A model generated the notes under the pieces. The model did no database searches, was not told where the DNA came from, and saw only the letters and a program-made list of their open reading frames with translations. DNA of 14,896 bases from an uncultured Deinococcales bacterium (GTDB taxonomy: Bacteria > Deinococcota > Deinococci > Deinococcales > JAAFIG01). The first letter of the stretch is position 1; every line of letters starts with the position of its first letter. Positions 2,309 to 14,896 of the stretch are shown here, piece after piece. Where the stretch lies: positions 1 through 14,896 of the forward strand of contig CAXTKV010000135.1 of the NCBI GenBank assembly GCA_964244895.1, given 5' to 3'. A program made the translations under genes and the position numbers.

Positions 2309-2350
2309 AAACACCGTCCCTGACGCATGGCCTTATTTGCGTGCTGGAGC
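2309..2350. promoter_or_regulatory. Paired inverted box, site 1 (25-bp spacing)
   Basis: AAACAC-CGTCCCTGACG (2315-2325), 14-bp gap, CGTGCTGGAGC (2340-2350). The function is inferred. Confidence 0.55.
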
Positions 2351-2425
2351 GCGAGTAGCCCGTCAGGTGCTGTTTTACGAGCAAGAAGCGCGAGTAGCCC
2401 GTCAGGTGCTGTTTGTTGATCAAGA
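2348..2425 (+). repeat. 39-bp tandem repeat, 2 copies; same family as 14760-14896
   Basis: AGCGCGAGTAGCCCGTCAGGTGCTGTTTTACGAGCAAGA (2348-2386) and AGCGCGAGTAGCCCGTCAGGTGCTGTTTGTTGATCAAGA (2387-2425). The first 28 nt are identical. Confidence 0.9.
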
Positions 2426-2521
2426 GCGGTGTGTTCGCGTTTGACCTCGAGAATCCGGCTTTTGGATGGGTCTATTCAATACCGTTTTCTCTCGAGCCCG
2501 AACGCCCACGAAGCCAGAATT

Positions 2522-2532
2522 CGTGCCAGACG
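2522..2532. promoter_or_regulatory. Single box upstream of the regulator promoter
   Basis: CGTGCCAGACG is identical to the right-hand box at 10882-10892. No partner is found 25 or 35 bp upstream. Confidence 0.4.
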
Positions 2533-2573
2533 CAGCCCTTGAAGTTCAGGAAGGTTCAAGCGCACATCGCCCC

Positions 2574-2579
2574 TAGAAT
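2574..2579 (+). promoter_or_regulatory. Putative -10 box of a leaderless promoter for the regulator
   Basis: TAGAAT lies 7 nt before ATG 2587 and there is no Shine-Dalgarno. A TANNNT box just upstream of the start codon is the known signature of leaderless mRNAs in Deinococcus-Thermus. Confidence 0.65.
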
Positions 2580-2586
2580 ACTGAAG

Positions 2587-5500
2587 ATGATCGAGTCAGC
2601 CACTCAAGAAAAGGGTGCGGGTTTGAGACGAGACGTGATCTCGGACGTCGCGCAGCAACTCGGTGCGGTCGTCTCGAAACGCGTGGGAATGCCCATCGGC
2701 CTCTGGGGCGAACCGGGCATCGGCAAGACGCACGCGGCGCGAGCGGTACTCGAGCGCGCGCTGTGCCATCACCTGAGCTTGCACGCCACCGCCAGCGGCG
2801 CGCAGATCGCGGCGGCGCTGCCCAGAGCCCGAACCGTGCCCGCCTGGGCGCAAGCGCAACTCGCTCGGCTCGAGCGCGGTGAGTCGCTGGAAAAAGAAGC
2901 CCTCACCGCCACGCTCGCGGCGGCGCTGGATTCGTTGGCGCCGTTCGTGCTGCACCTCGAGGATCTTCACGAGGCCGACCCGGAACGGTTCGAGTTGATC
3001 GAAGCTTTGGCCCGTATCGTCGCGCGCACGCGCGGCGTCGGTTTGTTGGTCACGAGCCGTGCGCCATTGCCAGAGCCCTTTCGCAACCACCACCTCGAGC
3101 CGTTGTCTTTTGAGCAAGTACACCATTTGGTGGCGCGAGAACTGAAGGCTGAAGCACCCGATGACGGGCTCGAATGGGTCTTCGGGCGCACGCGAGGCAA
3201 CCCGTTGTTCACGCTCGAATTCGTGCGCTACCTGACCCGGCAAGGCTTTTTGTGGAGCGATGGGCAGCGCTGGAACTGGCGACCCCCGCCTGAGGATTTC
3301 GTTCCGATCACCGTGGATGCGTTGATCTCGCAACTGATTTTGGGTTTGGCCGTGAATCCAGAAATTCTGGCGGCGCTCGAGGCCAGAGCGATCCTTCCCG
3401 GTGAGCTGCGCTCGGAACGCTTCGCGGCTGCCTGGGCCGAGGTCGCGGAGCTCAGCCGCAAAAGCTTGCGGGTTGCGGTGGTCGCGCTCGAACAAGCGGG
3501 AATCTTGAACGGTGAGCAGTTCGCACACCCGCTGTTTGCGGAGGTGATCCGGCGCGATATTCCCGCTGCCAGACGAACCATGTATGCGGCGCGCGCGGTA
3601 CAGGCGCTCGAGGTCTTCGACCCGGTGCTGGCCACAGGGTATTTCAACGAGGCGAAACTCGAGCCCTCCGAGGCGAGCGAACGCTTCGAGCGGGTTGCTC
3701 GAGGTTTGCACAGCCTCGGCGATGAGGTTCAAGCTGCACGCTTGCTGGCTCAGGCCGCCGAATGCTCCAGCGGTGAGCGACAGGCGGCGTTGGCGCTCGA
3801 GGCGGCTCGGTATCTTCGCAGGCGCGACGTGCCCGAAACCGAACGCCTGTCGCGGCTCGCGATTCAATCCTTAACGCTTCGCATCGAGGCCACCTTCGCG
3901 TGCGCTGGCGCCATTCAGGTCAGCGGGCGACACGATGAAGCCTGGAGCTTGTTGCAATCCCTGCCAGAAAACGAACGCGATGGGCTCCAGTGGTGGCAGA
4001 TGCTGCTGGAATTTCACGTCACAGCCGGACAAAATCGTGAAGCGGTGCGCCTCTGGGACGAGCGCCCGGATTTGCAAAAATCCGCTTCTGCCTGGAGTCT
4101 GTACAAGGTCATCAGCGCCCTGATTCACCTCAGCCAGACCGAACGGGCGAACGAACTGATTGACGTTACGCTCTCGCGCTCCGACATCAGCCCTGCGGAG
4201 CGGGCGCAGATCCTCGACCGACGAAACTTCATGCTCGTGCGCGAAGCGCAATACGAGGCGGTCGAACGCAACCTGACCGAACTCCTCGGGCTGATCGACG
4301 AACGCTCGTTTCCCTCGGATTGCGCCACGTATTACGTCAATCGATCCGTCGCCCGCACGAGGCTCGGCAAGCACGTCGAAGCCGAAGCGGACGCGGCGAG
4401 CGCCTGCCAACTGGCCCTGTCCACCGGTTCGTTGACGTACTACGCGATCTTCCCGACGGCGTTGGCGCTCGCCCAGATTTACCAGGGGAAGTACGAGCAG
4501 GCCGAACGGGTGCTGCTCGAGGTGACCTCGTTGGCGCAACTCCATAACCCCAGCGCGCTCTGGGATTGCTACGGACACCTGAGTTTCTTGTACCTGCGCT
4601 GGAACGCGCCGCTCGGCCCGATGCTGGCCCGCCGTTACGCTCGGCTCGCGCTCGAGATCGCGCGCGGTCTGGAACGCACCGATGCGCTGGTCAGCGCGCT
4701 CGAGGATTGCTGTCGGGCGGAATTTCAGAATCTCGCGCCCGAAGCCGCGCTCGAGTACGCCAGGGAACTCGAGCGGATCGCGCTGCGCACCGGGTCGAAC
4801 GAAGACCTGACATCCGGCTCCTACCAGATGGGGCGCGCGCACGCCGAACTGGGACAGCGCGATCTGGCGGTGCCGTACCTGCTGCGCGCCGCAGAACTCC
4901 ACGAGGCGCACGGCAATCGCGCCGAAGCCCTGAGCGCGCTGCTCGAGATTGACCGACTCGATAACGACATCGAGGCCGCGAGGCGCAAGCTCGAATGGTT
5001 CGAGGCGAACGGCAGCCATCAGCACGCGGCACGCGTCAGACGGTGTTTCCCGATGCTGGGGCTCGCACTTGAACAGCCCGCCTCGCGTTCATCGGCCCGG
5101 ATTCACGTCCTCGGCTCCGTCGGGCTCGAGCGCGATGGACGACCCATTCCCACGCGCGCCCGCAAACGCCTCGAGATCCTGACGCACCTCCTCGAAACCC
5201 GGATCTCGGGGCGATCCGAGGCGAGCGCGCTCGAGTTAATCGACGCGGTCTACCCGGACGCGCCCGAGCCCGAAGCCAGAAACACGCTCAAGCAGCAGGT
5301 CTACATGATCCGTTCGAGCCTCGGGGCGGAGAGCGTCGTCAGCACCCCGAACGGTTACGCGCTCGGGGCCGTCTCGAGCGATGCCGAGGAGTTCCTGAGC
5401 GCGGGCGATTCGGGCGTCTGGCGCGGCGCGTACCTGGAGGGCTTCCACGGGGGCTGGCGCTCGGAGGTGCGCGAGGCCTTGATGCTCGGTTTGCGTTCGC

Positions 5501-5730
5501 GCATCGAGACCCTCGGGTCGGGTGACGCGAAAGAGATTGCGCGGCTGGGTGCGATCCTGCTCGAGATGGAACCCTACGACCTCGACGCGTTGCGCTCGGT
5601 CGTTCAGGCGCTCGAAGCGGCGGGCGATGCGCGCGGCGCGCGGCGGTTGTTCCGGGATGGTGGCTCGCGATTGGAGCAGATCGGTGCGTCTTTGCCGGAA
5701 ACCTTCGAGGATTTTGTAACGGCGCGCTGA
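2587..5730 (+). CDS. Large ATP-binding transcriptional regulator: N-terminal STAND/AAA ATPase, TPR-like helical region, C-terminal winged-HTH + BTAD (SARP-like)
   Basis: Walker A GEPGIGKT (2707-2730), Walker B FVLHLEDLH, sensor VTSR and STAND GxP motif TRGNPLF. Ala/Leu/Glu-rich helical repeats follow. From about 5098: RIHVLG.V.L..DG, LEILTHLL, ELIDAVYPD...ARNTLKQQVYMIR..LG, GYAL, SDAEEF, W.G.YL, EPYD, typical of SARP wHTH/BTAD. Start moved from 2413 (inside the tandem repeat) to ATG 2587; 1047 aa. Confidence 0.88.
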   Translation: MIESATQEKGAGLRRDVISDVAQQLGAVVSKRVGMPIGLWGEPGIGKTHAARAVLERALCHHLSLHATASGAQIAAALPRARTVPAWAQAQLARLERGESLEKEALTATLAAALDSLAPFVLHLEDLHEADPERFELIEALARIVARTRGVGLLVTSRAPLPEPFRNHHLEPLSFEQVHHLVARELKAEAPDDGLEWVFGRTRGNPLFTLEFVRYLTRQGFLWSDGQRWNWRPPPEDFVPITVDALISQLILGLAVNPEILAALEARAILPGELRSERFAAAWAEVAELSRKSLRVAVVALEQAGILNGEQFAHPLFAEVIRRDIPAARRTMYAARAVQALEVFDPVLATGYFNEAKLEPSEASERFERVARGLHSLGDEVQAARLLAQAAECSSGERQAALALEAARYLRRRDVPETERLSRLAIQSLTLRIEATFACAGAIQVSGRHDEAWSLLQSLPENERDGLQWWQMLLEFHVTAGQNREAVRLWDERPDLQKSASAWSLYKVISALIHLSQTERANELIDVTLSRSDISPAERAQILDRRNFMLVREAQYEAVERNLTELLGLIDERSFPSDCATYYVNRSVARTRLGKHVEAEADAASACQLALSTGSLTYYAIFPTALALAQIYQGKYEQAERVLLEVTSLAQLHNPSALWDCYGHLSFLYLRWNAPLGPMLARRYARLALEIARGLERTDALVSALEDCCRAEFQNLAPEAALEYARELERIALRTGSNEDLTSGSYQMGRAHAELGQRDLAVPYLLRAAELHEAHGNRAEALSALLEIDRLDNDIEAARRKLEWFEANGSHQHAARVRRCFPMLGLALEQPASRSSARIHVLGSVGLERDGRPIPTRARKRLEILTHLLETRISGRSEASALELIDAVYPDAPEPEARNTLKQQVYMIRSSLGAESVVSTPNGYALGAVSSDAEEFLSAGDSGVWRGAYLEGFHGGWRSEVREALMLGLRSRIETLGSGDAKEIARLGAILLEMEPYDLDALRSVVQALEAAGDARGARRLFRDGGSRLEQIGASLPETFEDFVTAR

Positions 5731-5754
5731 CCCGGCCAAAAGCGCGGTTTGACT

Positions 5755-5806
5755 GAGGGCACCGCCCTGGACGCGAGATAAAAATTGCGTCCAGGACGGT
5801 GTTCTT
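5755..5806 (+). terminator. Hairpin after the regulator, formed by paired inverted box site 2 (25-bp spacing); possible intrinsic terminator and/or operator
   Basis: GAGGGCACCGCCCTGGACGC (5755-5774), 12-nt loop, GCGTCCAGGACGGTGTTCTT (5787-5806). This gives a 20-bp stem with one mismatch and three G-U pairs, followed by T-rich TGCATCTTTTGGCTTTTCTTT. Box cores are at 5763-5773 and 5788-5798. Confidence 0.6.
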
Positions 5807-5914
5807 TGCATCTTTTGGCTTTTCTTTGACCGCGTTGTGACCGAGCCCCCCGCATCATGACCTGGCGCTCGAGCGGATCGCTCGAGGGTGCAACTGGGGG
5901 AAAGGAGGCGGGTG

Positions 5915-6334
5915 GTGGAGGCGCGCGCGGATCATCACGATGACGGTCTGCCAGCGCTCGAGGAGGTCGGGAGCTCGAGCCGGGATGCGACTCGAAGCTC
6001 GAGCCAGGGTTTCGACGGAAGCCCTGAGCGCATCGCGGGACGTTTTTTTGCCCGACTCTGGGACATCGATTGCGTGCTCGAGCTGTGCCTGAACAACGCC
6101 GGTTGCGTCGAAGGCCGGTTGATCGCGGACGACGAACCGCTCGAAATTGCGGGCGGATCACCCGACCCGAACGGCGATGTTCGCGGCCTGATCCGCGCCC
6201 GCAGCCTGACGGAAGCCTTCGCCGCGTTCCAGGCGCACCTGGCGGAAGACGGTTTGTTCCTTCAGGTCAACCTGGCCGATGCCGAGACCGGCCTCGAGAT
6301 CGCTGCCGACGTGATGTTCGTGCGGCTGGGCTGA
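5915..6334 (+). CDS. Hypothetical protein (about 139 aa), paralogue of 6484-6816
   Basis: Strong SD AAAGGAGG (5901-5908) lies 6 nt before in-frame GTG 5915. The C-terminal ~100 aa align with the next ORF (DC.LEL.L..AGC..G...AD.E.LEI.GG.P...G.V.GLI...MF.R). Confidence 0.75.
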   Translation: MEARADHHDDGLPALEEVGSSSRDATRSSSQGFDGSPERIAGRFFARLWDIDCVLELCLNNAGCVEGRLIADDEPLEIAGGSPDPNGDVRGLIRARSLTEAFAAFQAHLAEDGLFLQVNLADAETGLEIAADVMFVRLG

Positions 6335-6483
6335 ACGCCTTTGCAAGACTGTTGATCGCCCCTTGACCCGCGCTGGGTCGGGATGCGAGCCGGACGCGTG
6401 CGCTGATTTTCGACTGAGATTTTTCACCCGAGAAACGCCCGAGCCGCAATTGCAGCTCGAGGGCCGAGGAGGATTGTCAACCG

Positions 6484-6816
6484 ATGACCGCAACACTGAC
6501 CCAGAGCTTGACCGGACAGTACACGACCAACATTCAGAATCTGGATTGCAGCCTGGAGCTGCACCTGGACGGCGCGGGCTGCCTGGTGGGCGAATTCGTC
6601 GCCGATGGCGAACGCCTGGAGATCATGGGCGGCGTGCCGAACGCCTACGGCGAGGTTTTCGGGCTGATCCTGGAACCCGAGGGCATCCTGGCGGTCTTCC
6701 GGGCCGCGCCGCAAGCCCAGGACCTGATCTTCGAGGTGGACGTTCCCGGCCAGGACGATCTGATGCAGCTTCACAACGCCGAACGCCTGATGTTCCGCCG
6801 TCGGGAAGCCCAGTGA
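6484..6816 (+). CDS. Hypothetical protein (110 aa), paralogue of 5915-6334
   Basis: SD GAGGAGG at 6466-6472 and strongly GC3-biased codons. Its stop overlaps the next start (GTGA 6813-6816). Shares a motif with the upstream ORF. Confidence 0.85.
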   Translation: MTATLTQSLTGQYTTNIQNLDCSLELHLDGAGCLVGEFVADGERLEIMGGVPNAYGEVFGLILEPEGILAVFRAAPQAQDLIFEVDVPGQDDLMQLHNAERLMFRRREAQ

Positions 6817-8195
6817 AACGCGCCGGACAGCACGCCATCGTGATCGGCGCGAGCATCGGCGGTTTGCTGGCCGCGCGCGTGCTGAGCGACCGCTTCGAGC
6901 GCGTCACGATCCTCGAGCGCGACGAATTTCCCGCACCCGGTCAGCCTCGCAAGGGCGTGCCGCAGGGCCGTCACGCGCACGGCGTGCTGGCCACCGGATG
7001 GCGCATCATGCAGCGCCTGTTTCCCGGCTTCGAGACGGAATTGCTCGAGGCGGGCGCGCAGATCGGTGATTCCACCGGGGACGGATTGTGGTTTCAGCAA
7101 GGCGGTTACCTGGCGCAGACGGACGGCGGGTTGCCCGTGATCTGCCTGAGCCGTCCGCTCCTGGAGGCTCGAGTGCGGGCTCGGGTGCTGGCCTTACCGA
7201 ACGTTCAGGCGCGGACGGGGGCGGACGTGAACGGGCTCCTGAGCCCCGACAGCACCCGCGTAACGGGCGTCAAGCTGACCGATGGCGCGAGCGATCGAAC
7301 GCTCGAAGCTGACCTGGTGATCGACGCCAGCGGTCGAGGTTCGCGCAGCGGCGCGTGGCTCGAGGCGCTCGGCTACGCGAAACCTGAAGTCTCACAGATC
7401 AAGATCGACCTGGCCTACGCCAGCCGGGTCTACAGCCGCAAAGCCAGCGATCTGGGCGGCAAGACGCACCTGGTCATGACCCCAAAAGCACCGCACAACA
7501 AGCGCAGCGGTGTGCTGCTGGCGCAGGAAAACGACTGCTGGATCGTGACCCTGATCGGCCTCCTGGGCGATCATTGCCCGACGGATGAAGCGGGTTTTCT
7601 GGAGTTCGCCCGGAGCTTGCCGACCCGCGAACTCTACGACGTGATTTCCAAGGCCGAACCGCGCTCCGAGATCACCCAGCACCGTTACCCCTCCAGCCAA
7701 CGCCGCCATTTTGAGCGCCTGACGCGCTTCCCGGAGGGCTTCGCGGTCTTTGGGGACGCGCTGTGCAGCTTCAACCCGGCTTTCGGGCAGGGCATGACGG
7801 TCGCTTCGCTCGAGGCGCAAGCGCTCGAGGAAAGCCTGACGGATGGCCTTTCGGGGTTGTGGCGGCGCTTCATCGGGCGCGCCTCCAAGATCGTGGACAT
7901 CCCGTGGACCCTCTCGGCCAGCGCAAACCTGGCCTTCCCGGAGGTGCAGGGCGAGCGCGGCCCGCAGGTCGGGATCGTCAACGCGTACATCGGCAGGTTG
8001 CTCGAGGTGGCGCACACCGACCCGAAGCTGGTCGTGGCCTTCCATCAGGTCAGCAACCTGGTCAAACCGCCGTCCAGTCTGTTCGCGCCCGGCATCGTCT
8101 GGCGCGTGCTGTTCGGTCAGAGAACCCGGCTCGAGTTTGCCGGGTCGCGGATCGACGCTGCCCAGAACGCCTCGAAGACCTTCGAGCGCCCATAA
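6813..8195 (+). CDS. FAD-dependent monooxygenase/oxidoreductase (UbiH-like / LasC-epoxidase-like family)
   Basis: True start GTG 6813, coupled to the upstream stop; 460 aa. Rossmann motif HAIVIGASIGGLLAA, ILERD, RKGVPQGRHAH, ADLVIDASGRGS and the second FAD motif FGDALCSFNPAFGQGM. Confidence 0.9.
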   Translation: MKRAGQHAIVIGASIGGLLAARVLSDRFERVTILERDEFPAPGQPRKGVPQGRHAHGVLATGWRIMQRLFPGFETELLEAGAQIGDSTGDGLWFQQGGYLAQTDGGLPVICLSRPLLEARVRARVLALPNVQARTGADVNGLLSPDSTRVTGVKLTDGASDRTLEADLVIDASGRGSRSGAWLEALGYAKPEVSQIKIDLAYASRVYSRKASDLGGKTHLVMTPKAPHNKRSGVLLAQENDCWIVTLIGLLGDHCPTDEAGFLEFARSLPTRELYDVISKAEPRSEITQHRYPSSQRRHFERLTRFPEGFAVFGDALCSFNPAFGQGMTVASLEAQALEESLTDGLSGLWRRFIGRASKIVDIPWTLSASANLAFPEVQGERGPQVGIVNAYIGRLLEVAHTDPKLVVAFHQVSNLVKPPSSLFAPGIVWRVLFGQRTRLEFAGSRIDAAQNASKTFERP

Positions 8196-8211
8196 ATCTG
8201 CGGTGCTGAGC

Positions 8212-8269
8212 CAAGACCGTCCAGCACGGTGTCTTGATGCGCCAAAAATCTGCGTGCTACGCGGTGTCC
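8212..8269. promoter_or_regulatory. Paired inverted box, site 3 (35-bp spacing)
   Basis: CAAGAC-CGTCCAGCACG (8218-8228)-GTGTC, 24-bp gap, degenerate CGTGCTACGCG (8253-8263)-GTGTCC. SD CCCGAAAGGA at 8281-8290. Confidence 0.65.
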
Positions 8270-8296
8270 AGCTGCGGATGCCCGAAAGGAATCCCC

Positions 8297-10831
8297 TTGA
8301 GAATTCGCCTGATCCTCGTACTGCTCGGCTTGCTGGCCGCCTGCACGAACACGTCGACCGCGCCGCCGCCTCCGCCAGCGCCGCCACCGGGTGCGCCGAG
8401 CATCACCTCGAGCGCGCCCGCCGACAACTCGAGCGGCATCGCGGTCGATACGAACCTGATCGTGAGCTTCTCCAGGCCGATGAACACGACCTCCGTCGGC
8501 GTCACCGCCTCGCCCAGCGTTGACCTGGGTGTGGGTGCGTGGAGCGATAGCGACACGACCTTGACGCTCAAACCACCTATCAACCTCGCGCCTGGGACGG
8601 CTTACACGCTCGCGCTCGAGGGCAAGGACACGACCGGTGCAGCCCTTACGGGCACGAAAACCATCGACTTCACGACCGCCCCCGCCGCCGACCCGCCCCC
8701 CGCCACGCCCATCAACCCCAACGCGAAACCCGGCGATGCGTCGGTCGCGGTTTCCTGGGATGCGAATACGGAAGCGGACCTGAAGGACTACACGGTCTTC
8801 TGGGGCACGTCTTCTGGTGCGCTCACATCTTCGGTCAGCGTGGACAAAACGCAGACCTCGAAGACCATCACCGGGCTGACCAACGGCACAGCGTATTTCT
8901 TTGCGATCAGCGCCACGGACACCGCCGGGAACGCGTCCTCAAAAACCGCGAGCATCAGCGCCACGCCCGTCAAACCATCATCCGGCGACACCACACCACC
9001 CGCCGCGCCGACCGATCTGGACGCGAGCGACAGCAACGGGGACGTGATCCTTTCGTGGAAATCGAACACGGAACCCGACCTCAAGGGCTACAACATTTAC
9101 CTGGGCACGACTCCGACCGCGCTGACCCTGGCGGGCTTCGCGGACAAGTCCCTCAAGAACAAGAAATTCAGCGGCCTGAGCATCGGAACCACGTACTACT
9201 TCGCGATGGATGCGGAAGACACCAGCGGTAACAAATCTTCCAGAAGCGCGTCGGTCAACGCCACGCCGAAAGACAACGTGGCTCCGAAGCTCGTCTCGAG
9301 CGCACCCACCGACGGTGCGAAGGATGTACCCGTCAACACCGATCTCGTCTTCAAGTTCAGCGAGCCGATGCGAACCGATTCGCTCGAGTTCAACCAGCTC
9401 TGCGCGGCCAGCGGCCCTTGCCTGATCTTCAACCTGCCCGTCTGGAGCGACGGTGACAAAACCGCGACCCTGAAACCCACCAAATTGCTCGATGGCAACA
9501 GGGAGTACGCGCTGACCCTGGGCGCGAAAGACAAGGCTGGAAACGCCCTGAATCCAACCTCGATCCGTTTCGCGACCATCGGGCCGAAGCTCGTCTCGAG
9601 CGCACCCGCCAACGGCGCGACGAACGTGAACGTCGACCTCGCATCCATCGCGTTCAACTTCAACGAACCGATGCAGCAGAATTCGCTGCAACTGAACTGC
9701 ACCTTCGTGGCGAACAACACCTCAATTCAGTGCGGCGCAGAGGGCTCCGGATTCTTTGACGCGCCGACCTGGAGCAACAACGACAAAACAGCGACCTTCA
9801 CCCGAAAAGGTGGCGCGTTCTTACCGACCACGCCGTACAGGGCAGAAATCATCAGCGCGAAGGATAAGGTGGGCGGCGCGCTGGCTCCCACATCGATCAG
9901 CTTCACCACCGGGCTGGTCCCCGATACGACGCCACCGACCGTGCTCGATTTCAGCCCGGCTCCATCGGCCAAGAATCAAAGTCTGGACACGAGCATCGAG
10001 ATCCTGTTTTCAGAACAGATGAACCAGGACAGCCTGCTCAAGAATTTCTCCGGCACGGTGGTGAACCTGGTGACGGGCCGCACCGGACCGCTGGTGATCT
10101 CGAGCCTGGGTGAAGTTCGAACCCCTCAAGGATTCAGGTACGTCTTTCAACCCGGCGCACCCTTCGATTACAACGATACCGTCGCGTGGAGGCTCGATTC
10201 GGGAGCGACGGATGCGGCCAGAAATCGCCTGGCCAATCCGATCGCGGGTTCGTTCAACGCGATCCGGCAGGTCACGCTCAACGCGAACGGAAACACCGGA
10301 GATGTGAGGCGATTCTGTCTGGGTTTCTGCACCAATACGGGCAGCGGAGGAACCAATCCAATGCGGGTTGGAACGAATGATGACGGTGGTAAAGCCATCT
10401 CGCGAGCCTACATGAGCTTCGATGACCTGTCGGCAGCCTTGCCATCGCCCATAGCGGCGATCACCAGCGCCGTGCTGACCCTCAAGGCGATCGGTACCGC
10501 CGGTAACCCATTCGATCCGAACAACCTCGGCACGATGGCCCTCGAGCGCGTGGACTACGGGCCGACGATTGACGGCGTTGACTTCGACATTAAACCCTTG
10601 AACTGCGACGGAGGCGTGTGTTCGCTCGACTTCTCGAGCCTGAACGAAGCCAATGGCGCGATTGACGTGCTGAAATTCGTGCGGGCGGACTACGCAGAAC
10701 GGGGCGCACATGGCGACAGCGCCCAATTCCGATTGCGGTTTGCCAACACCGATTCGCACAACGGAACGAAATTTGCGGTGATCGACTACGACGTTCACCC
10801 GACCCTGACCATTACCTATCTGGTTCCCTGA
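8297..10831 (+). CDS. Surface lipoprotein: Ig-like (Big_5/SbsA-type) x1, fibronectin type III x2, Ig-like x3, C-terminal beta-sandwich (DNRLRE/CBM-like, tentative)
   Basis: TTG 8297 follows SD AAAGGA and gives signal MRIRLILVLLGLLAA|C (lipobox LAAC) then a Pro-rich linker; 844 aa. Ig-like repeats P.(I/L/V)...P..G...V......F.F.EPM...S. Fn3 repeats (V.)SW..NTE.DLK.Y....G...GL..GT.YFFA..A.D..GN.S. An exact 24-bp repeat lies at 9284-9307 and 9584-9607. Confidence 0.88.
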   Translation: MRIRLILVLLGLLAACTNTSTAPPPPPAPPPGAPSITSSAPADNSSGIAVDTNLIVSFSRPMNTTSVGVTASPSVDLGVGAWSDSDTTLTLKPPINLAPGTAYTLALEGKDTTGAALTGTKTIDFTTAPAADPPPATPINPNAKPGDASVAVSWDANTEADLKDYTVFWGTSSGALTSSVSVDKTQTSKTITGLTNGTAYFFAISATDTAGNASSKTASISATPVKPSSGDTTPPAAPTDLDASDSNGDVILSWKSNTEPDLKGYNIYLGTTPTALTLAGFADKSLKNKKFSGLSIGTTYYFAMDAEDTSGNKSSRSASVNATPKDNVAPKLVSSAPTDGAKDVPVNTDLVFKFSEPMRTDSLEFNQLCAASGPCLIFNLPVWSDGDKTATLKPTKLLDGNREYALTLGAKDKAGNALNPTSIRFATIGPKLVSSAPANGATNVNVDLASIAFNFNEPMQQNSLQLNCTFVANNTSIQCGAEGSGFFDAPTWSNNDKTATFTRKGGAFLPTTPYRAEIISAKDKVGGALAPTSISFTTGLVPDTTPPTVLDFSPAPSAKNQSLDTSIEILFSEQMNQDSLLKNFSGTVVNLVTGRTGPLVISSLGEVRTPQGFRYVFQPGAPFDYNDTVAWRLDSGATDAARNRLANPIAGSFNAIRQVTLNANGNTGDVRRFCLGFCTNTGSGGTNPMRVGTNDDGGKAISRAYMSFDDLSAALPSPIAAITSAVLTLKAIGTAGNPFDPNNLGTMALERVDYGPTIDGVDFDIKPLNCDGGVCSLDFSSLNEANGAIDVLKFVRADYAERGAHGDSAQFRLRFANTDSHNGTKFAVIDYDVHPTLTITYLVP

Positions 10832-10840
10832 GGGTTCAGG

Positions 10841-10898
10841 GAACACCGTCCAGCACGATGTTTTTGTGAATCAAGGAATCGCGTGCCAGACGGTGCTC
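10841..10898. promoter_or_regulatory. Paired inverted box, site 4 (35-bp spacing)
   Basis: GAACAC-CGTCCAGCACG (10847-10857), 24-bp gap, CGTGCCAGACG (10882-10892)-GTGCTC. The next ATG is 47 nt after the right box. Confidence 0.75.
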
Positions 10899-10938
10899 CC
10901 ATAGGTCGCGCCTCGAGAACAACCCGAAAGGAAAACAC

Positions 10939-11067
10939 ATGCGAACCCGCCAAATCGCGTTGCTGCTCGCGCTCGTCACGATCCTCTTCGCCTGCGCGGA
11001 CACGCCCAAACCGCCCGCGACCGCCACCTGGGATCAATCGAACTTTGAAACCGCCACCTGGAACTGA
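10939..11067 (+). CDS. Small 42-aa lipoprotein with a C-terminal Trp motif (below the ORF-track cut-off)
   Basis: SD GAAAGGA, then MRTRQIALLLALVTILFA|CADTPKPPATATWDQSNFETATWN*. It has a basic N-region, hydrophobic core and lipobox LFAC. An internal repeat ACCGCCACCTGG occurs at 11020-11031 and 11050-11061. The stop is 11 nt before the fibre ATG. Confidence 0.85.
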   Translation: MRTRQIALLLALVTILFACADTPKPPATATWDQSNFETATWN

Positions 11068-11078
11068 AAGAGGTCACC

Positions 11079-12488
11079 ATGAAGCATTCTCCGGACATCA
11101 GAAACGTCGCGCTGGGCGCGATCCTGGCGGTGATCGGGCTGAGCGCCAACGCCGCCGTCAACCTGACGACCTTCGCGCCGAACACGCCGATCAAATCGGG
11201 TGAGGTCAACGCGAACTTCTCGAGTTTGAAAGCCAGCATCGAAGCGCTGCAAGCCCCAATCGGCGTCGGAAGACTGTTCATCAATGGCGATCCCGCCGAT
11301 GGAAAAGTATTGAAATTGCAGGCCGGGAACCTCGCCTGGGCGGATGACCTGACGGGCGGCACGGGCGGCACGGCCTACTCGGCGGGCGCTGGATTGGCGT
11401 TGACGAACGCGACCTTCAGCCTGGCGGATGGCGGCGTGACGATCAACAAGCTCTCGGCCACGGGCGGGTCGGAGGGCAAGGTCTTGAAAGTCTCTGGTGG
11501 CAAACTGAGCTGGCTGGATGACATCGTGGGCAGCCCCGGCAACACCTACAGCGCCGATGACTCGAGCCTGGCGCTCTCGGGCACGAAATTCTCCGTCAAG
11601 GACGGCGGTATTGGCACGATCAAGTTGTCCACCGGCGCCGTGACCCGAGACAAGCTCGCCGACGCCGCCGTCACCTCGAGCAAGATCGCCTTTCCGGTGA
11701 GCGCGGGCGGTGATTTTGGCACGAATGGTTTCACGGTTCAGAATTCCAATCCCAACGGACAGGCCATCGGTTTGCGAGGTATCGGCGGCGGATTCGCTGC
11801 CGTGTCCCTCAATCTTCCGATCGGCGTCCTGGGCGAAAGCCAGGCTGGTATCGGCGTGGCTGCCCAGAGTCAGGCCAGTTACGGCGTGTACGGGAAATCC
11901 ACCAGCGGCATCGCCGTTTCCGGCATCAGTTCCAGCGGCAGAGGCGTGTCCGGTGTGAGCGAGAGCGATGTTGGCGTGTACGGCACGAGCACAAATTCGT
12001 CAGCCCTGTTCGGCGAGAACAACACGAGCGCCGAGACGCTCAGGCTCACGCAGCACGGTGCTGGCGCACTGATAGACGCGCACGGCCCCAACGGGAACAC
12101 GGTCTTTTCGGTGGACAACAAGGGCAACGTTTTTTCGGGCACGAACTCGTACTCGAGCGACCGATTCCTCAAAACGAATTTCTCGAGCGTGAATCCGCTG
12201 ATGGTGCTCGAGCGGGTTGCGGCCATGCCGATGACGCGCTGGAATTACAAACGCGACGCGAGCAGCGTGCAGCACATCGGGCCGATGGCGCAGTACTTCC
12301 ACGCGGCTTTCGGCTTGAACGGCAACGACGACACGCACATCAACGCGGTCGATGCCAACGGCGTGGCGTTCGCGGCGATCAAGGGTCTGAACGCCAAGCT
12401 CGAGACCGAGAACGCCTCGTTGCGGGCCGCGCTGACCGCGCTCGAGGTGCGATTGGAAGCTCTCGAGAAAGCGGCCCGCCCGAAATAA
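11079..12488 (+). CDS. Secreted tail-fibre-like protein with a C-terminal intramolecular chaperone (peptidase S74/ICA) domain
   Basis: 469 aa. Signal peptide ends SANA|A, followed by TTFAPNTPIKSGEVNANFSSLK. Duplicated shaft units GKVLK...G.L.W.DD / YSA...LAL....FS..DGG....KL, VT..K(L/I) repeats and ~10-aa GV.G.S repeats. The C-terminal SDRFLK.NF...W.YK...HIGPMAQ.F..AFG...D..GVA.AAIK.L plus coiled coil starts at 12156. Confidence 0.88.
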   Translation: MKHSPDIRNVALGAILAVIGLSANAAVNLTTFAPNTPIKSGEVNANFSSLKASIEALQAPIGVGRLFINGDPADGKVLKLQAGNLAWADDLTGGTGGTAYSAGAGLALTNATFSLADGGVTINKLSATGGSEGKVLKVSGGKLSWLDDIVGSPGNTYSADDSSLALSGTKFSVKDGGIGTIKLSTGAVTRDKLADAAVTSSKIAFPVSAGGDFGTNGFTVQNSNPNGQAIGLRGIGGGFAAVSLNLPIGVLGESQAGIGVAAQSQASYGVYGKSTSGIAVSGISSSGRGVSGVSESDVGVYGTSTNSSALFGENNTSAETLRLTQHGAGALIDAHGPNGNTVFSVDNKGNVFSGTNSYSSDRFLKTNFSSVNPLMVLERVAAMPMTRWNYKRDASSVQHIGPMAQYFHAAFGLNGNDDTHINAVDANGVAFAAIKGLNAKLETENASLRAALTALEVRLEALEKAARPK

Positions 12489-12509
12489 GCCAACCTCAGG
12501 AGGAGCTTC

Positions 12510-12710
12510 GTGAACGACATGGAACTGGAATTGAGGGTCCGAGACCGCCGTGAGCGCATCCTGGCGGAGAGCGAAAACGACCACCTGGTCGGGCGGGCTC
12601 CGCCGGGCCAGGGGCTGCGGGTTCGGCTGGCCGATGCGCTGTTTGCCCTGGTCGTGAAGCTCGATCCGGCGAGATCGCGCTGGGTCACGACGCGATCTCG
12701 GGCGGTCTGA
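12510..12710 (+). CDS. Small hypothetical protein (66 aa)
   Basis: SD AGGAGGAG immediately upstream of GTG 12510, 21 nt after the fibre stop. Helical, Arg/Leu-rich sequence (RRERILAES...LRVRLADALFALVVKLDP). Confidence 0.65.
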   Translation: MNDMELELRVRDRRERILAESENDHLVGRAPPGQGLRVRLADALFALVVKLDPARSRWVTTRSRAV

Positions 12711-12802
12711 AATGGGTCACGAACACCGCTGAGTCTGACGCGATCCAGAAAACACCCTCCTGAAGCCCGAAGCCCTTCGCGCTTGACGGGTACAAACGCA
12801 GA

Positions 12803-12860
12803 GAACACCGTCTGGCACGGTGCTCCTGCGGGGTCAATATTCTCGTACCAGACGGTCTTC
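12803..12860. promoter_or_regulatory. Paired inverted box, site 5 (35-bp spacing)
   Basis: GAACAC-CGTCTGGCACG (12809-12819)-GTGCTC, 24-bp gap, CGTACCAGACG (12844-12854)-GTCTTC. The next ATG (12901) is 47 nt after the right box. Confidence 0.75.
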
Positions 12861-12900
12861 CCCAAATCACCAACCCGAGCCGCACCACGAAAGGAGATTC

Positions 12901-13050
12901 ATGCGAATGGACTGAAAGCCGCCGCTGACCGCGCTGAATAACGCAGACCGGATCGGTCTCGAGCCCGCAGAGGACAGACCCGAAAACGACGCCTGGAAAG
13001 CCCTCGAGACACCGCCCACTCAGATTGCAACACACAGGAGAACGCCGTGA
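12901..13050 (+). pseudogene. 4-codon minigene (MRMD*) or nonsense-interrupted 49-codon small ORF
   Basis: Strong SD GAAAGGAG precedes ATG CGA ATG GAC TGA (12901-12915). The same frame stays open to TGA 13048-13050, which overlaps the methyltransferase start (GTGA). Confidence 0.35.
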
Positions 13051-13865
13051 TGACCATGACACCGGAGATGGAAAGCCTGAAAACCCGACTCAAAACCACC
13101 TGGAATTCCGGCGATTACGCCACCTTCGCCAAACCGATGGAACCCGGCGCGCTCGAGTTCCTGGAGCGTCTGCGCGTACCGCCCGGAACCCGAATGCTGG
13201 ATGTCGGTTGCGGCGCGGGCCAGATCGCCATTCCCGCCTCGCGCGCCGGAATTGACGTGACCGGCGTGGACATCTCGCCCAACCAGATCGAACAGGCGCG
13301 CGCTCGAGCCAAAGCCGAAAACCTGAACGCGCGCTTCATTGAAGCCGACGCTGAAATGCTGCCCTACGCGGACGAATCCTTCGACCTGGTGGTCAGCTTG
13401 ATCGGCGCGATGTTCGCACCCAGACCGGATCGCGTGGCGGCGGAACTGGTGCGCACGTGCCGCAGCGGTGGGCGGATCGTGATGGCCAACTGGACGCCGG
13501 AAGGCTTCGTCGGGCAGATGTTCAAAATCATCGGCAAGCACGTGCCGCCTTCCCCGTTGATGCCCTCGCCGCTCCTGTGGGGCAAAGAAGACATCGTGCG
13601 AGAGCGTCTGAGTGACGGGATCGCGGAATTGCAGTTGGTCAGACGGCAGTACCCGTTCGCGTACTCGTTCGGGACGGCTGAAGTGGTCGGGTTCTACCGC
13701 GATCACTATGGCCCGACCAACCGCGCCTTCGCGGCGCTCGATGCGGCGGGGCAGGCGGCCCTGCAGCGCGATCTCGAGCAACTCTGGACGGAACACAACC
13801 GGGCCACGGACGGCAGCACGCGTTACGACTCCGAGTACCTGGAAGTGATCGCGGTTCGCGCTTAG
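13047..13865 (+). CDS. Class I SAM-dependent methyltransferase (UbiE-like fold, substrate unknown)
   Basis: 272 aa; ATG 13050 is an alternative start. SD AGGAG at 13036-13040. Motif [59 protein letters not shown]. Confidence 0.92.
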
Positions 13866-13876
13866 CAAAACCTGAG

Positions 13877-13893
13877 GGATACCGTCCAGCGCG
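13877..13893. promoter_or_regulatory. Single (left-type) box; partner degenerate or lost
   Basis: GGATAC-CGTCCAGCGCG (13883-13893), 18 nt after the methyltransferase stop. There is no convincing right box at +25 or +35. Confidence 0.5.
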
Positions 13894-13913
13894 GCCTTCC
13901 TCGGATTTCAGGA

Positions 13914-14165
13914 ATGAACGCAGAACGATATGCCTCGAGAAGTCCGAAACGAACTCTCGGGTCGAGCGACACGAGGAGCCGCACGGACACGAGCTTCCGC
14001 ACGACCGGAATGGATCGCGCCTTCACCAGCCTGGCCTCGACCTCGAGCGGATGCACGCTGCGCGTCCGCATCGGATGGCAAGACCTCGAGATCGAGATGG
14101 CTTCCACCGAAACGCTCGAGGGCGCGCTGCGAGATCTGCACGGCGAGACCCGCGACGCAAGATGA
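13914..14165 (+). CDS. Possible small hypothetical protein (start uncertain: 13914 or 14010)
   Basis: It fills the gap on the cluster strand, and the C-terminal half (CTLRVRIGWQDLEIEMAS...LEGALRDL) looks protein-like. No clear SD. Confidence 0.3.
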   Translation: MNAERYASRSPKRTLGSSDTRSRTDTSFRTTGMDRAFTSLASTSSGCTLRVRIGWQDLEIEMASTETLEGALRDLHGETRDAR

Positions 14166-14270
14166 CCGTCACCCTGAGCCAGACCCGCGCGATCTGCGCC
14201 GCCTGGAACGCCGCAATCAACCACCATCAACGTCCGTACTGAGAACATCCGCTCTGAAAAGGGGTTCAAC

Positions 14271-14672
14271 ATGAAAAAGTCAATCGCCGCCATCACCGCC
14301 CTGACCGCCCTGGCGCTCGCCCTCGGCGTGGTCATCGCCACCGACGCCGCGCCCTCGGCGCGCTGGGCGACGAGTTACGAGCACCTGAGCATGCCCGAAG
14401 ATTTCAAGGCCATGATGGTCGTGGTGGACTTCCCACCCGGCGCGGTCTTTCCGTTGCACTCGCACGGTGGGCCGGTGGTCGCGATGGTGATCGAAGGTGA
14501 GATCACGCTGGTTCAGAACGGGGTCAGCAAGGTCTACAAGGCGGGCGAGGGGTTCAACGAACCCCTCGGGCAGATCCACGAAGCCCGCAACAATGGCAAA
14601 ACCAAGGCGGCGGTAGCAGTCACGTACCTGCTGCCGAAGGGCGCCCAACCGGACATTTTCGTCGGCAAGTAA
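14271..14672 (+). CDS. Secreted cupin-domain protein
   Basis: 133 aa. Signal peptide MKKSIAAITALTALALALGVVIA. Cupin motif 1 FPPGAVFPLHSHGG...VIEGEI and motif 2 YKAGEGFNEPLGQIHEARN. SD-like AAAGGGG upstream. Confidence 0.9.
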   Translation: MKKSIAAITALTALALALGVVIATDAAPSARWATSYEHLSMPEDFKAMMVVVDFPPGAVFPLHSHGGPVVAMVIEGEITLVQNGVSKVYKAGEGFNEPLGQIHEARNNGKTKAAVAVTYLLPKGAQPDIFVGK

Positions 14673-14707
14673 GGCTCGGCTTGCGCGAATCGAAGACTGA
14701 ATTCAGG

Positions 14708-14762
14708 CGAGAACACCGTCCAGGACGGTGTTCTCGGGCCTCCAAAGGTTGCGTGCTGGAGC
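14708..14762. promoter_or_regulatory. Paired inverted box, site 6 (35-bp spacing); the left box is a perfect 29-bp palindrome
   Basis: CGAGAACACCGTCC-A-GGACGGTGTTCTCG (14708-14736; core 14717-14727), 24-bp gap, CGTGCTGGAGC (14752-14762). Confidence 0.75.
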
Positions 14763-14896
14763 GCGAGTAGCCCGATAGGTGCTCTTCCACGAGCAAGAAG
14801 CGCGAGTAGACCGGCAGCGATCCTGCCCGTGAGGTGCATGTTCAGGATCAAGAAGCGATCCTGCCCGTGAGGTGCATGTTCAGGATCAAGAAGCGA
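14760..14896 (+). repeat. 38-39-bp tandem repeat array running off the right edge; same family as 2348-2425
   Basis: A 39-bp unit at 14760-14798 and a partial unit at 14799-14815. Then AGCGATCCTGCCCGTGAGGTGCATGTTCAGGATCAAGA twice exactly (14816-14853, 14854-14891), and a third copy begins at 14892. Confidence 0.9.

Follow-up and report, generated by a model that had tools for sequence, protein, structure and literature searches.

Repeats made of densely placed intergenic doublets are known from bacteria, and what is at issue for them is whether they are selfish hairpins or platforms for proteins. In Escherichia coli, repetitive extragenic palindromic (REP) sequences and bacterial interspersed mosaic elements (BIMEs) are reported, in passages of PMC3333891, as binding sites for IHF, PolI and gyrase, as topological insulators and as targets of other mobile elements. 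In REP doublets forming hairpins (REPINs), which are associated with REP-associated tyrosine transposases (RAYTs), inverted doublets occur at preferred distances and singlets diverge more than doublets (passages of PMC3116915), both traits shared with the element described here. This element is a paired box that occurs six times in a 14,896-bp stretch of DNA (the window), which is the entire contig C135 of an uncultured Deinococcales genome (G000; 5.12 Mb in 328 contigs, 91% complete). Our reading, to which we give a probability of roughly 55%, is that the pairs are a lineage-specific, genome-wide, intergenic repeat of REP/BIME-like kind that has likely been copied and likely serves as a double-stranded DNA platform for a putative protein. 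It builds on the observed copy number, spacing classes, proximity to stop codons, occurrence of one pair per gap, positional stability in a related species, and a second carrier.

A genome-wide family of paired boxes

A scoring matrix was seeded from the boxes in the window, which gave thousands of matches at once, and was then refined by training on genome-wide pairs. Boxes were counted genome-wide at 14 bits or more, and pairs comprise a left and a right box 20–60 bp apart. G000 holds 4,629 such boxes, where about 190 are expected, and 1,918 left–right pairs; none were found in 1 Mb of order-5 Markov control sequence. The spacing falls into narrow classes, with 880 pairs at 25 bp, 152 at 26, 552 at 35 and 205 at 36, together 1,789 of the 1,918 (93%). 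The remaining neighbour distances form a minor ladder near 30/31, 41 and 52 bp, with 58 at 30/31, 53 at 40–43 and 11 at 52–55 and depletion in between. Where two boxes point the same way, the spacing is again often 35/36 bp (30 of 63 pairs). Within the four main classes nearly every sequence is distinct (879/880, 152/152, 552/552 and 205/205). The elements make up 2% of the genome, and their density of 374 pairs per Mb holds across all of it, which makes it misleading to say, as the first-pass annotation did, that they punctuate the gene cluster in the window.

Gene positions were taken from our own gene calls (4,509 genes). We see 1,139 pairs in tandem gaps, 435 in convergent gaps and 242 in divergent gaps, with 38 within called genes and 64 at contig edges. 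In tandem gaps the median distance from stop codon to pair is 21 bp, and convergent gaps are occupied more often (410 of 582) than divergent gaps (235 of 625). Of the occupied gaps, 1,683 have a single pair; two or more are found in just 55, where random placement predicts approximately 340–375; among gaps of at least 300 bp, the corresponding counts are 475 and 43. One pair separates two genes that, from their sequence, we take to be rpoB and rpoC. Box orientation with respect to the replication or coding strand is near chance (235/432, 153/284). Single boxes number about 920 and are more divergent than paired boxes (1.65 vs 1.24 mismatches).

Pair-free contigs number 46 of 328, some of them 26–32 kb long. 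Five contigs of 15–56 kb (C36, C50, C130, C5 and C15) carry 0–1 pairs at a normal density of the hexamer CTCGAG and are probably plasmid or recently acquired DNA. CTCGAG is itself the commonest hexamer in G000, at 4.3 per kb (2.4–8.3 per kb in stretches L003–L021 from relatives), in a HIP1-like excess. A tie between this excess and the pairs was considered and rejected: the hexamer is two-fold enriched in elements, but the Spearman coefficient across contigs is 0.07, and the excess is also found in family relatives that lack the element.

Distribution was surveyed in 60 relatives for the paired pattern and in 364 genomes of the phylum for the exact box and a two-core pattern. The paired pattern is absent from all 60 relatives. 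Counts of the exact box are 1,482 in G000, 38 in G202, which belongs to a different family of the same phylum, and at most nine in any other genome; the two-core pattern is confined to G000 and G202. Isolated boxes in relatives include one perfect pair in G005 (L088:1658-1705, contig C557) and one G000-like contig in G007 (L072, contig C526), G000-type pairs in otherwise pair-free genomes that may reflect transfer or mis-binning; the rest are singles selected by the search pattern and were not counted. No analogous motif was seen in a small sample of 18 stretches of 1.7–20 kb from 17 genomes of relatives. A scan of genome contigs gave at least two matches, both unrelated, among the matches listed, and viral contigs gave none.

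G202 carries about 170 copies of an intergenic element of about 100 bp, embedded in heptamer-like repeats (loci L027–L056 and L116–L195), and this element is absent from all four congeners of G202 tested. The genome was sampled over 1.54 of its 3.9 Mb. The cores stand 36 bp apart in 66 of the 69 element copies in the sample and 35 bp apart in the remaining three. Because the strong half of the right box faces inward, the G202 arms do not pair (arm complementarity 0.45, mean fold −5.4 kcal/mol). Gap identity is 76% among G202 copies, compared to 47% in G000. In G202 the spacing is thus preserved without a hairpin, and the copies bear signs of copying as a unit. We see no indication of insertion sites shared between G202 and G000: in syntenic gaps, a G202 copy coincides with a G000 pair in 3/7 cases, compared to 37/96 for other gaps.

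Positional stability was assessed from four metagenome matches, with the exclusion of two (L022 and L023) that have no nucleotide match to G000. In the other two, contigs from a related species about 80% identical to G000, the element is present at the orthologous gap (2/2 sites). The spacing is 25 vs 25 bp at one site, with 5 of 14 gap letters in common, and 26 vs 25 bp at the other, and nearby intergenic DNA has indels.

Box anatomy and the copies in the window

The true motif is about 18 bp long, (A/G)GAACACCGTCCWGSACG, with a strong side that is near-invariant at ACCGT and ACG and a variable centre. The inner side carries a complete mirror half in some boxes and, in the others, a weak half and a T patch 4–8 bp inward, and each box can be read as a pseudo-palindrome of 23 bp that has A/T patches approximately one turn (about 10 bp) to each side of its centre. 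The CGT-N5-ACG core is unspecific by itself, having 19 matches in the window and 8,521 in the genome. A+T content is 58% in the gaps, compared to 42% in intergenic DNA, and target-site duplications show no excess at eight boundaries and six lengths. At 10.5 bp per turn, simple arithmetic sets the box centres 2.4–2.5 turns apart in the 25/26 classes, 3.3–3.4 turns apart in the 35/36 classes, and approximately 2.9, 3.9 and 5.0 turns apart in the minor classes. The main offsets put the centres on roughly opposite faces of the helix, and not on one face as had been proposed. The accompanying argument, that a fixed spacing with a divergent gap points to a protein on double-stranded DNA more than to an RNA hairpin, is supported by these data.

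The features of the window are as follows.

2309..2325, no strand: left box of pair 1, core at 2315, 17.9 bits.
2340..2347, no strand: leading portion of the pair 1 right box (25-bp class), which an insertion interrupts; a degenerate remainder, read from the sequence, is at 2426-2436.
2348..2425, plus strand: two tandem 39-nt mobile units interrupting that right box; the corresponding stretch of a related contig, at 2328-2431, is shorter by about 38 bases.
2623..5730, plus strand: STAND-type regulator gene, a neighbour outside the element, with AAA_16, TPR and weak BTAD matches and an AfsR SARP-like C-terminal part.
5757..5804, no strand: pair 2, cores at 5763 and 5788, spacing 25, 14.0 and 28.5 bits, 27 bp past the regulator stop codon.
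8212..8269, no strand: pair 3, cores at 8218 and 8253, spacing 35, 20.7 and 9.6 bits.
10841..10898, no strand: pair 4, cores at 10847 and 10882, spacing 35, 28.1 and 19.8 bits.
12803..12860, no strand: pair 5, cores at 12809 and 12844, spacing 35, 25.5 and 19.1 bits.
13877..13893, no strand: single box, core at 13883, 16.7 bits, 12 bp past a methyltransferase stop codon, with no partner at 25 or 35 bp.
14711..14733, no strand: left box of pair 6, core at 14717, a full 23-bp palindrome (29.9/28.5 bits) forming a 10-bp hairpin.
14752..14759, no strand: leading portion of the pair 6 right box (35-bp class), which an insertion interrupts.
14760..14896, plus strand: tandem and nested 38–39-nt units up to the contig end.

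All box positions and the six spacings (25, 25, 35, 35, 35 and 35 bp) in the first-pass annotation were reproduced. It had listed 14 boxes with the CGT-N5-ACG core; the exact core is present in only 9 of these, and the trained matrix accepts 11 of the 14 (9.6–29.9 bits). The supposed single box at 2522, at 2.6 bits, does not score as a box. Those at 2340 and 14752 score negative because a 39-nt unit is inserted in each, yet they are genuine right boxes.

Split boxes contain a structured unit of 37–41 nt, always inserted at the same point and present as tandem and nested copies, and 37 of the 42 split boxes have a partner at 24–26 or 34–36 bp. There are 94 units at about 69 loci in G000, with compensatory stem changes. 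The unit is also found in all 18 family relatives (L203–L245; 1–120 pattern matches each), where it sits inside other repeats, and it is therefore an independent hitchhiker. Loci L209, L210, L217 and L219 represent other multi-copy intergenic elements, from genus g5, that host the unit. Separately, positions 8297-12488 of the window hold a secreted-looking module that comprises a Big_5/fn3 lipoprotein, a 42-aa lipoprotein, and a protein with a terminal Peptidase_S74 chaperone domain.

Proposed mechanism and rival explanations

In the reading that we prefer, each box of about 23 bp would bind one protein dimer, and two dimers would cooperate only with their centres about 2.4 or 3.4 turns apart, so that gap length would be constrained and gap letters would be free to drift. 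The role may be architectural, through bending or topological insulation at the 3′ ends of genes in the manner reported for E. coli REP/BIME, and not gene-specific regulation. The element may have spread as a unit, in line with the more uniform copies in G202. A more ambitious version, which we offer only tentatively, is a sequence-specific chromosome-organising system, wherein a putative protein pair would clamp the approximately 1,900 phased sites, which lie at most gene boundaries and on average every 2.2 kb, making gene-sized topological units; the element would move between lineages, with G202 at an early stage of spread.

Several points weigh against a protein platform. Neither a binding protein nor a mobilising enzyme was found in searches of G000 and of sampled parts of G202. 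Single sites are dispensable, since at least 37 pairs survive with one box interrupted by a 39-nt insertion and about 920 boxes have no partner. In most pairs the strong halves face outward and are able to pair, and in the 25 class the arms are complementarily coupled (3.06 vs 3.54 ± 0.03 mismatches; diagonal mutual information to z = 32); such coupling could come from pairing, from hairpin-templated repair or from subfamily descent. The two lengths, 10 bp apart, may have been inherited from two founders instead of selected, and the evidence from orthology comprises two sites.

The protein searches covered several families. Y1_Tnp and the IS110 Transposase_20 gave no match in G000. Tyrosine recombinases gave 11 matches in G000, one with a 35% match in the G202 sample, and no candidate. 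HU paralogues do not track the element, with three in G000 and in each of the element-free genomes G001, G005 and G007, and one in G202. The DdrO/RDRM motif has the same CGT-N5-ACG geometry as this box and was rejected, as it wants TT/AA flanks and the invariant A/T of this box stand at other positions. A Pfam search of 91 of the 153 open reading frames adjoining G202 copies returned ordinary genes only, and a comparison of 1,450 G202 genes (from the sampled 1.54 Mb) with G000 returned mostly metabolic genes at high identity. Genes adjoining 26 box clusters were unremarkable on inspection by eye.

It is possible, if on the whole unlikely, that the pairs are a REPIN-type non-autonomous element, a single-stranded hairpin pair copied by an HUH transposase, with 25 and 35 bp as two founder lengths. 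Fixed-distance inverted doublets near stop codons, with more divergent singlets, match criteria in passages of PMC3116915, and both the arm coupling of the 25 class and the higher gap identity in G202 point the same way. One RAYT-like gene is present in G000 (L026:1405-1971, contig C12), scoring under the curated cut-off, and with 91% completeness the assembly may lack a cognate gene. However, the resident gene is flanked by its own GTAG REP (114 copies, one inside the gene) and by no pair; it serves that different REP and was rejected as the cognate enzyme, and RAYT-like genes are also present in all four element-free relatives tested. The boxes do not have the tag-plus-hairpin form with an unpaired GTAG or CGTC foot, those of G202 cannot pair, and the arms of the 35 class are uncoupled (4.19 mismatches vs 4.21 ± 0.04 permuted, with mutual information at one position only). 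The pairs are also under-dispersed, whereas REPINs are reported in passages of PMC3116915 to be randomly placed. As the tag, the cognate RAYT and random placement all failed, the pairs are not filed as REPINs. The conserved interior and near-identical copies of a miniature inverted-repeat transposable element are not seen in G000 and are seen in part in G202 (copies 81–89% identical). We consider it improbable that the pairs act in RNA, as a 3′-end hairpin stabilising mRNA or ending transcription. The short distance to stop codons and the high occupancy of convergent gaps would suit such a role, as would the 10-bp hairpin that fully palindromic boxes make beside the T patch. However, transcription-oriented pairs have no G–U preference (1,109 G–T vs 1,209 A–C) and no 3′ T bias, palindromic boxes are without upstream preference (183 vs 224), and the strand-specific hairpin followed by a U tract that marks an intrinsic terminator is not seen. 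No box in the window was called terminator-like and the window has no Rfam match; 242 pairs lie between divergent genes, and a quantised loop length would have no reason.

Somewhat less credible again is a recombination or DNA-uptake signal that allows the exchange of gene modules between pairs. The pair-free contigs would fit this, as would two related contigs whose match to the window begins precisely at the left box at 12805, although homology ending at gene boundaries is expected regardless. The comparison here is with Neisseria dRS3 and DNA uptake sequences, the latter being mostly single copies, many of them within genes. Unlike uptake sequences, only 38 of the 1,918 pairs are inside called genes; the same placement test failed for boxes, with 363 of 4,629 inside called genes and about 190 expected by chance genome-wide. 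A crossover core and a target duplication were not found. Finally, the first-pass annotation had named the adjacent STAND-wHTH/BTAD regulator as the likely binder, and we give almost no credence to an operator of this gene. In its favour are a C-terminal, SARP-like DNA-binding domain, matching AfsR SARP (E = 5e-4) and BTAD (E = 0.0025), and the pair just past the stop codon. However, a genome scan for boxes, set beforehand as a test of that idea, shows about 1,900 pairs with no link to the regulator, of which G000 has about 12 long paralogues. A pair lies within 600 bp of 11 of these 12, but equally of 1,230 of 1,627 genes (76%) of at least 900 nt, which is no enrichment, and there are no pairs at the regulator loci of relatives (0 of 12). 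The distribution across genomes is opposite to that of the element: the C-terminal domain has 6–21 matches in each of 16/16 element-free family relatives and also matches strongly in two congeners of G202 that lack the element, while G202 itself gives only E = 3e-5. These counts belong to a family-wide expansion of STAND proteins of about 1,040 aa with a C-terminal SARP-like domain (6–21 matches per family genome). In short, the boxes and spacings are real, and they are not an operator of the neighbouring gene.

Comparison with known systems

The E. coli REP/BIME family, especially BIME-1 with its IHF site, is similar in its hundreds of inverted doublets, which lie between genes and are built around a linker (passages of PMC3333891). 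Our pairs differ in having no GTAG tag, in boxes that are mostly not hairpins, and in a linker whose length is quantised without sequence conservation. They are almost never in arrays, and number approximately 1,900, compared to the 584 REPs given in passages of PMC3333891. Compared to REPINs and RAYTs, no cognate RAYT was found for the pairs, which occur one per gap, with an uncoupled 35/36 class and a G202 doublet that is unable to fold. The CGTC-tagged REP families share the CGTC letters and a location mostly in tandem or convergent gaps near 3′ ends, but passages of PMC3733652 describe an unpaired tag, an 8–9-bp stem and a CCA tail, whereas here the CGTC is inside the palindrome. The words Deinococcus and Thermus are absent from the main text of PMC3733652. 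Motif strings returned only an unrelated ribozyme paper from a literature search that left most subscription papers and supplements outside.

For the 39-nt unit, the nearest likeness is to the small dispersed repeats of cyanobacteria (Elhai and colleagues, 2008), which are reportedly also tiny, structured, and nested in themselves and in other repeats. They are longer, differ in sequence and lineage, and have no bearing on the box pairs. For the geometry of the pairs, an analogy can be made with the Fis-bound recombinational enhancer of Hin-type invertases, where two dimer sites stand half-integral turns apart and an insertion of 10 bp is tolerated but one of 5 bp is not. That enhancer is a single locus with a different consensus, and the analogy is one of geometry only.

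Overall, what sets this element apart is a length quantised in helical steps while the gap drifts, seen in two carriers among 364 genomes that represent a late and an apparently earlier stage. Should it prove to have a dedicated binding protein, the element would act as a sequence-specific organiser, and its sites would far outnumber those of matS or parS; if there is no dedicated protein, it would be a REP-like family without a known transposase.

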